In this document: positions 1,847 through 3,830 of the stretch, in pieces
Numbering within the stretch: the first letter of the stretch is position 1
Layout of the letters: the number at the start of each line of letters is the position of its first letter
Source: Chloroflexales bacterium
GTDB lineage: Bacteria; Chloroflexota; Chloroflexia; Chloroflexales; Chloroflexaceae
Direction of reading: 5' to 3'
Length of the DNA: 14,683 nt
NCBI GenBank assembly: GCA_038247995.1
Contig: JBBRUG010000135.1
Location: 1-14,683, forward strand
Program-made: the position numbers and the translations under genes
Notes under the pieces: model-generated
What the model was told of the DNA's origin: nothing
Database searches by the model: none
What the model saw: only the letters and a program-made list of their open reading frames with translations

Positions 1847-1902
1847 TATCCGGTATCCGGTATCCGGTGTCCGGTGTCCGGTGTCCGGTGTCCGGTGTCC
1901 GC
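1847..1902. repeat. Heptanucleotide tandem array, (GTATCCG)3(GTGTCCG)5.
   Basis: Perfect 7-bp periodicity, read directly. Confidence 0.9.
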
Positions 1903-1920
1903 AGTGAACGGCTCAGCGGC

Positions 1921-2027
1921 TCCGTGGTTCCGTGGTTCCGTAGTCCCGTAGTTCCGTGGTTCCGTGGTTCCGTGGCTCCGTGGTTCCGTGGTTCCGTGGT
2001 TCCGTGGTTCCGTGGTTCCGTGGTTCC
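1921..2027. repeat. Octanucleotide tandem array, (TCCGTGGT)~13 with 3 variant copies. It ends 4 bp before the -35 box of the downstream promoter.
   Basis: Perfect 8-bp periodicity, read directly. The same unit (phase-shifted to GGTTCCGT) recurs at 3673-3830. Confidence 0.9.
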
Positions 2028-2031
2028 CCTC

Positions 2032-2059
2032 TTGCATTCCAGTAATATAGTGTTATAAT
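2032..2059 (+). promoter_or_regulatory. Sigma70-like promoter with a -35 TTGCAT box at 2032-2037, a 16-nt spacer and a consensus -10 TATAAT box at 2054-2059. It drives the MVP-like gene.
   Basis: Consensus -10, 5/6 -35, correct spacing. It lies ~45 nt upstream of the ATG at 2104, and the SD GAGGTG sits 6 nt before that ATG. Confidence 0.5.
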
Positions 2060-2088
2060 GACACTATATAAAGTGTCGCGGTAACACT
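2045..2088. promoter_or_regulatory. Two operator-like dyads. The first is ATATAGTGT-N7-ACACTATAT at 2045-2069, with the -10 TATAAT exactly in its centre. The second is AGTGT-N7-ACACT at 2072-2088.
   Basis: A perfect 9-bp inverted repeat is read directly. A second dyad with the identical AGTGT/ACACT half-site and the same 7-bp spacing lies immediately downstream. This is the classic geometry for a dimeric repressor occluding the -10 box and transcription start. Confidence 0.5.
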
Positions 2089-2103
2089 ATTGAGGTGCAT
2101 CCC

Positions 2104-3489
2104 ATGTTCATCCCCTGGTTCCAATTCCTCTCCGACGACGAACAACTCCTGATCATCACGCCAACGCAACGCCGGGTGGCAAATGGCCCGGGCATGGTTC
2201 TCACGCCGCCGTTCAGCCAGGTGACGCGGCGCAAGGCGTTGCTGCTCGATCCAACCGAGGCAGTGCGTGTGCGCGATACCCAGAGCGGTGAATTGCAAAC
2301 CCTGAGCGGCCCGCAGCGCTCTTTTCTTGGTGCTTACGAGGAGCTTGATACCGCCTTGACGGTTATTCCGCTGACCAGTACGCAGTATGTGCGCCTGATC
2401 GATCGACGCACCGGCGTGATCCGCGTCGAACGAGGTGCGCAGCAGGTGATTCCCGGGCCGACTGAAGACGTGCTCGAAATGCCCCGCGAGGGCGTCAATA
2501 TCGATGCGATGACGGCGGTACTTGTGCGCGACACCCGCGACGGCAGCCTGGAGTTGATCACGACACCGCAAGTCTTCGTGCCCACGCCCTTCCAGACGAT
2601 TGTTGAGGTGCGCCAGCGCATTCTGCTCGCCGATCACGAGGCGGTCGTGGTGAAGGATCGCAGCGGCGCGTTTCAGATCCGCCGGGGCGTCGATGCCGAG
2701 CGGGCCTTCTTCCTCGCGCCATACAACGAACTGGTGCAGTTCCGCTGGTCTAGTGGCCTGCACAAAGATCGCCGTGAATTGCGCCTCACCCATCTCGATC
2801 TGCGGCCCAAGTTTATGTGGTACGAGTTCGAGGCGCGCACCCACGACAATGTCGAATTGCTGATTGGGATCACTTTCTTCTGGCAGATTGTTGATGTGGA
2901 GCGCATGTTGCGCGTCACCGACGATACGCCGGGCGATCTCTGCTCGCACGCACGCAGCGATATTCTGCAAGCTGTTTCGCAGGTGCCGTTGGAGCGCTTT
3001 CTGGCCGCCTTCAACGAGGTTATCGGCGCGGCAGTGCTGGGCGAAGCCGACCCGTTCTATGCCGAGCGTGGTGTAGTGTTACACGCGGTTGAAGTGCGCT
3101 CGGTGGCCTGTAAGGATGCCGCAACCCAGCAGGTGTTGCAGGAGATCATTCAGGAGACGACGAACCGGCTCAACCGGCTTCAGCAGCAGGCCAGCGCCAA
3201 CGAAGTTCGCCTGCACGAGATGCGCGGCGCGATCGAGGCCGAGGTGTTGCGTGGCGAGTTGATGGAGGTGCGTCGGACGGTAGAGCAGGCCGAGGCGCGG
3301 ATTGCCGGCAGCTCCGAGGGCGAACGGGTGCGCGCCTTGCTCGCCGGCCTTGGCGACGATCTCACCGCCGAAGCGAAGTTGGCGATCTTCCAGACCTTGC
3401 GCAAGCAAGACGCGCTCACAGCACTAAGCAAGGGCAATGCGCGGCTCTATTTCACGCCCGAGGATGTGGATCTGCGGATCACGGGCTGA
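2104..3489 (+). CDS. Major-vault-protein (MVP)-like protein of 461 aa. It has about 5 N-terminal MVP repeats, an MVP shoulder (SPFH-like) domain, a cap-helix-like coiled coil and a cap-ring-like C-terminus.
   Basis: Compared by eye with rat/human MVP. The repeat YVRLIDRRTGVIRVERGAQQVIPGPTEDVLEMPREGV aligns with MVP repeat 9 (YVQDVKTGKVRAVIG...LWEKELPPGV). The segment LRPKFMWYEFEARTHDNVELLIGITFFWQIVD aligns with the MVP shoulder start ([34 protein letters not shown]). VTDDTPGDLCSHARSDILQAVS aligns with [21 protein letters not shown], and LHAVEVRSVACKDAATQQVLQEIIQETT with [32 protein letters not shown]. The C-terminal KLAIFQTLRKQDALTALSKGNARLYF aligns with [22 protein letters not shown]. The start is set to ATG 2104, with SD GAGGTG 6 nt upstream. 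The alternative GTG at 2095 would add 3 aa. Confidence 0.8.
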   Translation: MFIPWFQFLSDDEQLLIITPTQRRVANGPGMVLTPPFSQVTRRKALLLDPTEAVRVRDTQSGELQTLSGPQRSFLGAYEELDTALTVIPLTSTQYVRLIDRRTGVIRVERGAQQVIPGPTEDVLEMPREGVNIDAMTAVLVRDTRDGSLELITTPQVFVPTPFQTIVEVRQRILLADHEAVVVKDRSGAFQIRRGVDAERAFFLAPYNELVQFRWSSGLHKDRRELRLTHLDLRPKFMWYEFEARTHDNVELLIGITFFWQIVDVERMLRVTDDTPGDLCSHARSDILQAVSQVPLERFLAAFNEVIGAAVLGEADPFYAERGVVLHAVEVRSVACKDAATQQVLQEIIQETTNRLNRLQQQASANEVRLHEMRGAIEAEVLRGELMEVRRTVEQAEARIAGSSEGERVRALLAGLGDDLTAEAKLAIFQTLRKQDALTALSKGNARLYFTPEDVDLRITG

Positions 3490-3497
3490 GATGGTTT

Positions 3498-3583
3498 CAG
3501 GCGGCAGGCGGCAGGCGGCAGGCGGCAGGCGGCAGAGGCAGGCGGCAGGCGGCAGAGGCAGGCGGCAGAGGCAGGCGGCAGGG
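3498..3583. repeat. Octanucleotide array (CAGGCGGC)n with AGAGG interruptions, beginning 8 bp after the MVP-like stop codon.
   Basis: 8-bp periodicity, read directly. Confidence 0.9.
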
Positions 3584-3672
3584 TGTGCAAGGGCGCGGGG
3601 CGTGAAGCACACTACGGCTCTGCGATGAATGGGAAGCTGGCGATTGACGGCAGTACAGCGCCTCAGCCGCAT

Positions 3673-3830
3673 CTTCAGCAGTTTCGGTGCTTCAGTGTTT
3701 CAGTGGCTCCGTGGTTCCGTGGTTCCGTGGTTCCGTGGTTCCGTGGCTCAGTGGTTCAGCAGCTCAGCAGTTCCGTGGCTCAGTGGTTCAGCAGCTCAGT
3801 GGTTCCGTGCTTCAGTGCTCCAGGTTGCCC
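3673..3830. repeat. Degenerate octanucleotide array of about 20 units. Its core is GGTTCCGT/GGCTCAGT/GGTTCAGC/AGCTCAGC. It belongs to the same family, in the same orientation, as the 1921-2027 array.
   Basis: Continuous 8-bp register from ~3673 to ~3830. The central copies are identical to the upstream array unit. The three overlapping + strand ORFs here (VPWFRGS repeats) are translation of the repeat. Confidence 0.85.

Follow-up and report, generated by a model that had tools for sequence, protein, structure and literature searches.

Introduction

Prokaryotes do not suppress simple sequence repeats (SSRs) whose unit measures at least 4 nt, possibly because mismatch repair acts poorly on larger loops (PMC4060949). 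Heptamer SSRs are over-represented in the intergenic DNA of Xanthomonas and Nostoc, where both their length and their sequence turn over between close species (PMC4692102). In the available part of a survey of satellite-rich genomes, Chloroflexus aurantiacus stands first among the bacterial rows listed, with 22 scattered satellites made from one heptamer (PMC6749651). Here we describe four tandem arrays of this kind in contig JBBRUG010000135.1 of a Chloroflexales metagenome-assembled genome (MAG; GCA_038247995.1). The contig was analysed over its whole length of 14,683 bp and is hereafter called the window. The arrays lie on both sides of a gene encoding a 461-aa MVP/SPFH-like protein (the MVP-like gene), between a divergent PadR gene and a conserved downstream gene of 81 codons (the 81-aa gene). 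A first-pass annotation had proposed that an octamer array abutting the -35 box of the MVP-like gene could mediate phase variation, a phenomenon studied mainly in pathogens, and that the bracketing arrays could promote excision or duplication of the gene by recombination.

We consider it probable that the four arrays are lineage-specific, slippage-driven filler of intergenic DNA, i.e. long-unit microsatellites with units of 7–8 nt, and no dedicated phase-variation switch. They represent a fresh example of a known repeat type, the fast-evolving intergenic microsatellites typical of Chloroflexales. The closest named relatives of the window proteins belong to Oscillochloris and other Chloroflexales, and the host is an Oscillochloris-like filamentous bacterium related to free-living phototrophs. 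The window was compared with its closest relative, locus L095 (about 82% DNA identity), with the syntenic orthologue locus L057 (89% amino-acid identity), with the orthologues of L001, L059, L067 (Oscillochloris sp. ZM17-4) and L068 (about 70–75%), and with L079–L081, where the MVP-like gene is missing from the orthologous site. Paired samples of relatives were available as L057/L058, L092/L094 and L082–L091.

Array anatomy and turnover

The four arrays of the window (Table 1) are all intergenic and consist of head-to-tail units of 7–8 nt, in numbers far beyond chance. Tandem Repeats Finder (TRF) recovers the heptamer array that had been noticed between the divergent promoters, with eight GGTRTCC copies. 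A further array, (CAGGCGG) x12.6, begins 9 nt past the stop codon of the MVP-like gene and had escaped the first-pass annotation. The octamer GGTTCCGT occurs 14 times in the window versus 0.47 expected, a count reached in 0 of 200 shuffles, and all 14 copies are on the + strand within the two octamer arrays. The 7- and 8-bp arrays had been described as long and perfect. They are not perfect: the upstream octamer array shows 93% matches, with 10 exact units and a longest perfect run of 6, and the downstream one 77% matches, with only 4–5 exact GGTTCCGT units, the remainder being GGCTCAGT, GGTTCAGC and AGCTCAGC variants. The upstream array does end 4 bp from the -35 box as had been stated (array end at 2027, TTGCAT at 2032–2037), and the announced distance of ~1.65 kb between the two arrays agrees with the measured gap of 1656 bp. 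The downstream array is, as described, a degenerate array of the same unit in the same orientation, but it starts 194 bp rather than 180 bp past the stop codon and comprises about 17 rather than about 20 copies. It ends 7 bp before the -35 box of the 81-aa gene promoter. An exact 44-bp direct repeat is common to both arrays (1972–2015 and 3703–3746, 1.73 kb apart); it includes the variant unit GGCTCCGT and, after it, four GGTTCCGT units. Because of this shared stretch, the two octamer arrays appear to be related by copying and not by independent origin. Units are contiguous in all arrays, without the spacers of a CRISPR array.

Since the array units contain no stop codons, spurious open reading frames (ORFs) run through them at 1189–2037 (- strand, 282 aa), 1807–2058 (+ strand, 83 aa) and 3583–3843 (+ strand, 86 aa). 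The first might be taken for an N-terminally extended PadR protein. This extension was rejected as an artefact of translation running on through the arrays, the PadR orthologues being 178–186 aa long. Such ORFs would be miscalled as genes or as a PadR extension.

The arrays do not align with relatives. By blastn, homology between the window and L057 is limited to 2028–3490 and 3815–10016, and the arrays fall in the gaps. Alignment with L095 covers 2752–3479 and resumes from 3824 onwards, and with L079–L081 it covers 415–1804 and resumes from 3802 onwards. Homology thus ends at the borders of functional blocks, namely the PadR promoter, the segment from the MVP-like gene promoter to the stop codon, and the -35 box of the 81-aa gene, and arrays fill the space between them. 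At matching positions the relatives carry arrays of unrelated 9-, 10- and 7-mers: directly past the stop codon we found (TGAGGACGGG)9.8 in L057, (GGGCGTGCA)~4.6 in L095 and (AATGATG)4.6 in L067. CACGCC-type units stand just ahead of the 81-aa promoter in both L057 and L095. Orthologous sites with different units or lengths are what is expected of long-unit microsatellites in rapid turnover. Variation in copy number was also seen directly in the species carrying P0003, where (TCTCCTTG) is present in 3 versus 4 copies and (TCTCCCCA) in 2 versus 3 copies between samples with identical flanks.

In L060 (also in L061 and L063), a repeated module is found two times between ABC-transporter genes (1068–1160 and 2065–2151). 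Its conserved core of ~36 nt (TTTTAYTGTTTYGCGGTGG...) is preceded by a GGAG-type and followed by a TCTCC-type 8-mer array, and both arrays vary between samples in unit number or sequence.

Long tandem arrays had been called unusual for bacterial intergenic DNA. This is true in general, but not in this clade, as heptamer and octamer arrays are common in the intergenic DNA of related Chloroflexales. In six Chloroflexales loci (84 kb; units of 5–11 nt, at least 3 copies), 13 of the 23 arrays are intergenic whereas intergenic DNA represents 13% of the sequence (binomial p = 1e-6), and several of the arrays scored as coding sit at extreme gene ends or in small ORFs of doubtful status. The 21 kb of L067 contain about ten heptamer arrays, and the AATGTTG family of this locus is found at 128–158 and, inverted, 11 kb away at 11501–11538. 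In L092 a divergent intergenic region of 1 kb is packed with octamer and heptamer arrays, including (GGTTCCGT) x3–4 at a site that is not orthologous to the window. A divergent intergenic region of this locus shows a segmental duplication of ~400 bp (3440–4180), which comprises the octamer unit of the window and each copy of which carries (CCGTGGTK)n followed by (GCTCTGC)n.

Apart from this non-orthologous L092/L094 site, 538 kb of partly redundant Chloroflexota loci contained no octamer dimer. The unit thus lacks the conservation across relatives expected of a direct-repeat array bound by a regulator, such as the ctx heptads or iterons. A scan of metagenomes for (GGTTCCGT)3 returned 37 unrelated contigs with GC contents from 36% to 74%. 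Eight of these, from JAAUYA01, trace to a single element that is dispersed in an AT-rich genome unrelated to this organism. The GGTTCCGT unit is thus not specific to this organism. The first-pass annotation had mentioned that a genome-wide octamer family without association to promoters would speak against its proposal; this is borne out in part, by the L092/L094 site and the 37 unrelated contigs. One marine metagenome contig of 1.4 kb (L021, AACY023835743.1) carries at 551–1340 (GGTTCCGT)5 and ~600 bp of GGTGTCC, GGTATCC and GGTGCAGT units with a period of 8, which are the unit types of the heptamer and octamer arrays of the window.

Could the arrays, or their copy numbers, have been created by short-read assembly of a MAG? 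The window is an entire MAG contig of 14,683 bp whose left end lies inside a 115-bp repeat, and the contigs of L057 and L058 end at one and the same base, 250 bp ahead of the gene. However, the perfect runs do not exceed ~50 bp and are shorter than the reads (assumed to be ~150 nt), variant units anchor the assembly, and comparable arrays are present in independent assemblies from several sources. An assembly origin is therefore extremely improbable. L057 and L058 are two independent Logan assemblies, and their identical break at position 1 suggests an unassembled repeat just beyond. Judging from this shared end, arrays may explain contig breaks in Chloroflexales MAGs. The 115-bp tandem repeat of the window (x2.7, 87% matches) occupies 1–327, downstream of the hydrolase gene. 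It matches no Rfam family, shows no homology to L079, and probably caused the break at the left end of the contig.

Promoter region of the MVP-like gene

The 130 nt preceding the gene were compared in six Chloroflexales orthologues (window, L057, L001, L059, L067 and L068). A common module consists of CTTGCR, a spacer of ~16 nt, TATAAT or TATACT within a TAGTGT-N7-ACACTA palindrome, and then a second copy of the palindrome. In the window, TTGCAT is followed by a 16-nt spacer and by TGTTATAAT at 2051–2059. A consensus scan did not call TTGCAT as a -35 box, with 3 of 6 positions matching TTGACA; it is assigned as such because it is conserved in the orthologues. The palindromes TAGTGTTATAATGACACTA (2048–2066, overlapping the -10 box) and AAGTGTCGCGGTAACACTA (2071–2089) are absent from the rest of the window. 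While the neighbourhood of the gene differs in every more distant orthologue, the TAGTGT-N7-ACACTA operator is kept in the six species whatever the neighbouring genes, and the double palindrome looks like a conserved candidate repressor operator. We propose that control of the MVP-like gene resides in this conserved module of -35 box, -10 box and double-palindrome operator, which starts 4 bp past the array. The divergent PadR protein was considered as the regulator and found unsupported, as the operator is kept in orthologues without a PadR neighbour and the palindrome is absent at the PadR promoter.

No tandem array is present at the -35 box of the five other orthologues. This bears on the proposal that slippage alters how many octamers stand next to the -35 box, and thereby MVP-like transcription and/or its coupling with the divergent PadR promoter. 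The distance of 4 bp, the one-unit differences between samples of 8-mer arrays in a related species, and the precedent of Haemophilus influenzae hmw1A, whose heptamer SSR overlaps the -35 box of promoter P1 and tunes expression by its copy number (PMC8262952), are in line with it. However, the array lies outside the spacer between the -35 and -10 boxes, which is fixed at 16 nt, and outside the conserved module, so that copy number cannot change the spacer. Since the six promoter-proximal units are identical, gain or loss of one unit leaves the proximal ~50 bp (-40 to -85) the same and shifts only DNA more than 110 bp away, where there is no conserved upstream site, homology starting at 2028. 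Five orthologues retain promoter and operator without any array. The tract is therefore neither one where length alters promoter geometry or the transcript, as it would in the -35/-10 spacer, in the 5' untranslated region or between promoter and bound regulator, nor one maintained across relatives, two properties of contingency loci. Contingency loci are also reportedly concentrated in host-adapted pathogens, whereas the present host is a relative of free-living phototrophs. Finally, the arrays at three other places are identical between the paired samples of three other species (L057/L058, L092/L094 and L082–L091). Phase variation of the MVP-like gene is thus not supported, and we regard it as quite improbable.

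Probable loss of the gene in a sister lineage

Relatives were compared for presence or absence of the bracketed gene, as recommended in the first-pass annotation. In L079–L081 the segment corresponding to 1805–3801 of the window (arrays, gene and arrays) is replaced by 341 bp, and the PadR-hydrolase pair directly faces the block formed by the 81-aa gene, the dehydroquinase gene and the giant protein gene. With two outgroups, a quartet analysis unites L079 and the gene-bearing L057 (437 and 494 of 500 bootstraps), and the window groups with the gene-bearing L095. Because L079 is nested among gene-bearing relatives, a single deletion in its lineage is most parsimonious, and the cassette was probably deleted in the L079–L081 lineage.

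It is tempting to attribute this loss to the arrays: the octamer direct repeats would make the MVP-like cassette excisable or duplicable, and such array-filled spacers would have caused the loss in the L079 lineage. The exact 44-bp repeat, with its copies 1.73 kb apart, is above the minimum for RecA-dependent exchange, which is roughly 25 bp in Escherichia coli. Moreover, synteny is generally broken at the junction ahead of the 81-aa gene, where four different arrangements occur among five lineages. The support is nevertheless circumstantial. The empty site contains neither the octamer nor a hybrid array, and no deletion or duplication junction was seen among the compared loci. The endpoints do not identify the mechanism, as a viable deletion must end in the spacers, both flanking promoters being needed. 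Bracketing by the same unit is found only in the window, L001 and L067 having different units on each side and L059 no flanking arrays. The 44-bp identity looks younger than the split from the relatives, and arrays turn over faster than species diverge. The empty site would be consistent with excision by recombination between the repeats, but we judge this scenario unlikely.

In the empty site of L079 (3028–3372, between the promoters of PadR and of the 81-aa gene), the palindrome GTACGGACGCAGYGCGCTGCGTCCGTAC is present three times and a 23-mer forms a perfect x3 array. They may be repetitive extragenic palindrome (REP)-like elements at the place of the putative deletion. A tandem duplication comprising array and cassette was considered as the origin of the downstream octamer array and rejected, since the sequence that follows this array is the conserved 81-aa promoter, with no remnant of an MVP-like gene promoter. 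A Pfam scan of the main predicted genes gave no recombinase or transposase domain, and PADLOC returned nothing for the three genes of the locus. With no such domain and with arrays that are degenerate and unequal in length, the segment does not resemble a mobile cassette.

Folding and terminators

Another explanation is that the arrays are selected structural elements, either arms of expandable hairpin terminators or insulators, or arrays of binding sites for nucleoid or regulatory proteins. Heptamer units make up the terminator of the 81-aa gene, which folds as RNA at -46.7 kcal/mol (z = -6.3), its 14-nt arms being 100% complementary. An array directly past the stop codon recurs in four species, and it pairs with an inverted partner in L095 (z = -5.2) and L067 (z = -4.3), the pairing being weak in L057 (z = -1.4). 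The arrays of the window, by contrast, do not fold. Folding of the octamer array as single-strand DNA gives no significant structure (z = +0.9 and +3.4) and the 3' spacer 3485–3990 folds no better than its shuffles (z = +1.9), so that structured DNA or RNA was rejected for the octamer arrays of the window. Units that are not conserved between species argue against a sequence-specific binding protein, and a period of 8 bp does not keep phase with the DNA helix. Some arrays of the clade thus double as hairpin arms while the octamer arrays of the window do not, and we consider a selected structural role very unlikely for the arrays as a whole.

The (CAGGCGG) array (3498–3582) has its unit in common with the terminator stem (4237–4283), 650 bp downstream. 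As L079 carries a related, GGCAGGA-based hairpin terminator, the terminator unit seems to be older than the CAGGCGG array. The leader of the 81-aa gene (~130 nt) is conserved in three species (3854–3986 in the window, 1867–2003 in L057, 2859–2998 in L079) and contains a hairpin with a ~15-bp stem (CGATGAACGC...GCGTTTATTG).

Other features of the contig

The remaining features are listed in Table 1. The label MVP-like given to the central gene holds: the Pfam MVP_shoulder model reaches 25.8 bits, the cutoff being 25, and Vault_3, Band_7 and MVP_shoulder domains are found in homologues. PADLOC and NCBIfam returned nothing for the MVP-like gene or the 81-aa gene, a sequence search of the PDB gave no match, and Rfam had no match in the window. 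Look-ups of the exact proteins (the MVP-like protein with both possible starts, and the dehydroquinase) revealed no second contig of this organism.

Table 1. Coordinates of the arrays, genes and signals of the window.
Feature	Position	Strand	Remarks
Alpha/beta hydrolase	402-1394	-	ORF as listed
PadR/AphA-like regulator, divergent from the MVP-like gene	1189-1749	-	Pfam PadR and Vir_act_alpha_C; orthologues 178-186 aa
Predicted PadR promoter	1775-1802	-	TTGACA, 16 nt, TACTAT, with TG; left conserved anchor
Heptamer array (GGTATCC)3 then (GGTGTCC)5	1845-1901	+	TRF: GGTGTCC x8.1, score 93, 98% matches
Octamer array (TCCGTGGT, i.e. GGTTCCGT) x13.4	1921-2027	+	TRF, 93% matches
MVP-like gene promoter/operator module	2032-2089	+	Conserved in L001, L057, L059, L067 and L068
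MVP/SPFH-like gene, 461 aa	2104-3489	+	Pfam MVP_shoulder
Heptamer array (CAGGCGG) x12.6	3498-3582	+	TRF
Degenerate octamer array x16.9	3683-3817	+	TRF, 77% matches
Promoter of the 81-aa gene	3825-3853	+	TTGCCC, 17 nt, TATAGT; right conserved anchor
Conserved 81-aa gene	3987-4232	+	No known domain; 428 homologues, the named ones in Chloroflexales/Chloroflexota MAGs
Intrinsic terminator of the 81-aa gene	4237-4289	+	Stem of GGCAGGC units and complement, then T-run
Type II dehydroquinase	4325-4765	-	
Giant beta-helix/Ig-like protein	4817-10030	-	
Giant beta-helix/Ig-like protein	10329-14207	-	

Discussion

The reading that we favour is that of microsatellite filler. The arrays would occupy unconstrained spacers between the PadR promoter, the MVP-like gene with its promoter and operator, and the 81-aa promoter. 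They would arise and change in length by slipped-strand mispairing, which would be tolerated because mismatch repair deals poorly with loops of at least 4 nt. Neighbouring arrays may acquire units from one another through template switching or gene conversion, and such copying would explain the common units of both octamer arrays and of both GGCAGGC arrays. The arrays would have no sequence-specific regulatory function for the MVP-like gene. Their effects would be incidental: the divergent promoters are pushed ~230 bp apart, and 44 bp of direct homology come to flank the cassette, the junction being prone to rearrangement in this clade.

Several points weigh against a purely neutral filler. 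The two octamer arrays, which have the same orientation, each stop a short distance (4 and 7 bp) before a + strand -35 box. This adjacency is a coincidence under a purely neutral model, but only two cases are concerned and the DNA upstream of a -35 box is free to vary. Arrays begin 0–9 nt past the stop codon of the MVP-like gene in four species, with four different units, and this recurrence could reflect selection for an array at this place. The strong hairpins formed by array and inverted partner in L095 and L067 point in the same direction. Arrays are clustered and not uniform in the window, as 3 of its 6 intergenic regions have none. Slippage and gene conversion, finally, are deduced rather than seen, as would be any part of the arrays in the deletion; direct observation covers the anatomy of the arrays, their boundaries and turnover, the polymorphism in a relative and the empty site.

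Taking these points together with the gene loss, one may speculate that in Oscillochloris-like Chloroflexales dispersed arrays with shared units provide portable homology through which promoter-plus-gene cassettes are gained, lost and relocated, the MVP-like cassette being one example, and that the array recurring 0–9 nt past the stop codon, made of a different and unrelated unit in each of four species, is a selected, expandable 3' element. We regard this combined scenario as distinctly unlikely.

If the microsatellite reading is true, its value is practical, as arrays mark where functional promoter modules begin. The locus also offers a natural experiment, with the same gene and operator present with and without arrays and an empty site in a sister lineage. 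It could serve to measure the influence of microsatellites on promoter output and on gene loss in a lineage of free-living phototrophs.

How does this locus compare with known repeat systems? The heptamer tracts (ATCTTTC)n of hmw1A and hmw2A in H. influenzae resemble the upstream octamer array: they have a 7-nt unit, at least 13 copies and an end that touches the -35 box, and they change by slippage (PMC8262952). However, a second promoter, P2, precedes the hmw array, which forms part of the transcribed 5' untranslated region and is conserved at its locus. The hmw1A tract works because of this second promoter and its transcription, and its copy number has been shown to tune expression (PMC8262952). 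In the window no such arrangement is evident, and the orthologues have no array. The TTTTGAT heptads upstream of the Vibrio cholerae ctxAB promoter are likewise direct repeats in a promoter region (bioRxiv 10.1101/2021.05.14.444153), but the arrays of the window show no sign of a binding protein or of conservation. In marine Beggiatoaceae, TAACTGA is an abundant intergenic direct repeat of 7 nt in large filamentous bacteria (PMC4679880). It is a single unit conserved genome-wide, with a proposed post-transcriptional role, whereas the units described here vary by site and by species.

The SSRs of Xanthomonas (GGGAATC) and Nostoc (GGGGAYT) and the cyanobacterial STRR come closer, with 7-nt units in long intergenic arrays, located between the same genes in related species with extensive turnover, and some inverted pairs between convergent genes (PMC4692102). 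They differ in belonging to other phyla and in being rich in G-tracts and prone to form G-quadruplexes, which the octamer of the window is not. The (GATAGRA)n satellites of C. aurantiacus belong to the same order as the window, with one unit family at several non-coding sites in a satellite-rich type of genome (PMC6749651). The units of the window are different (GGTTCCGT, GGTRTCC and CAGGCGG), and only two sites are visible on its one contig. Array position relative to promoters or gene loss was outside the scope of that survey (PMC6749651).

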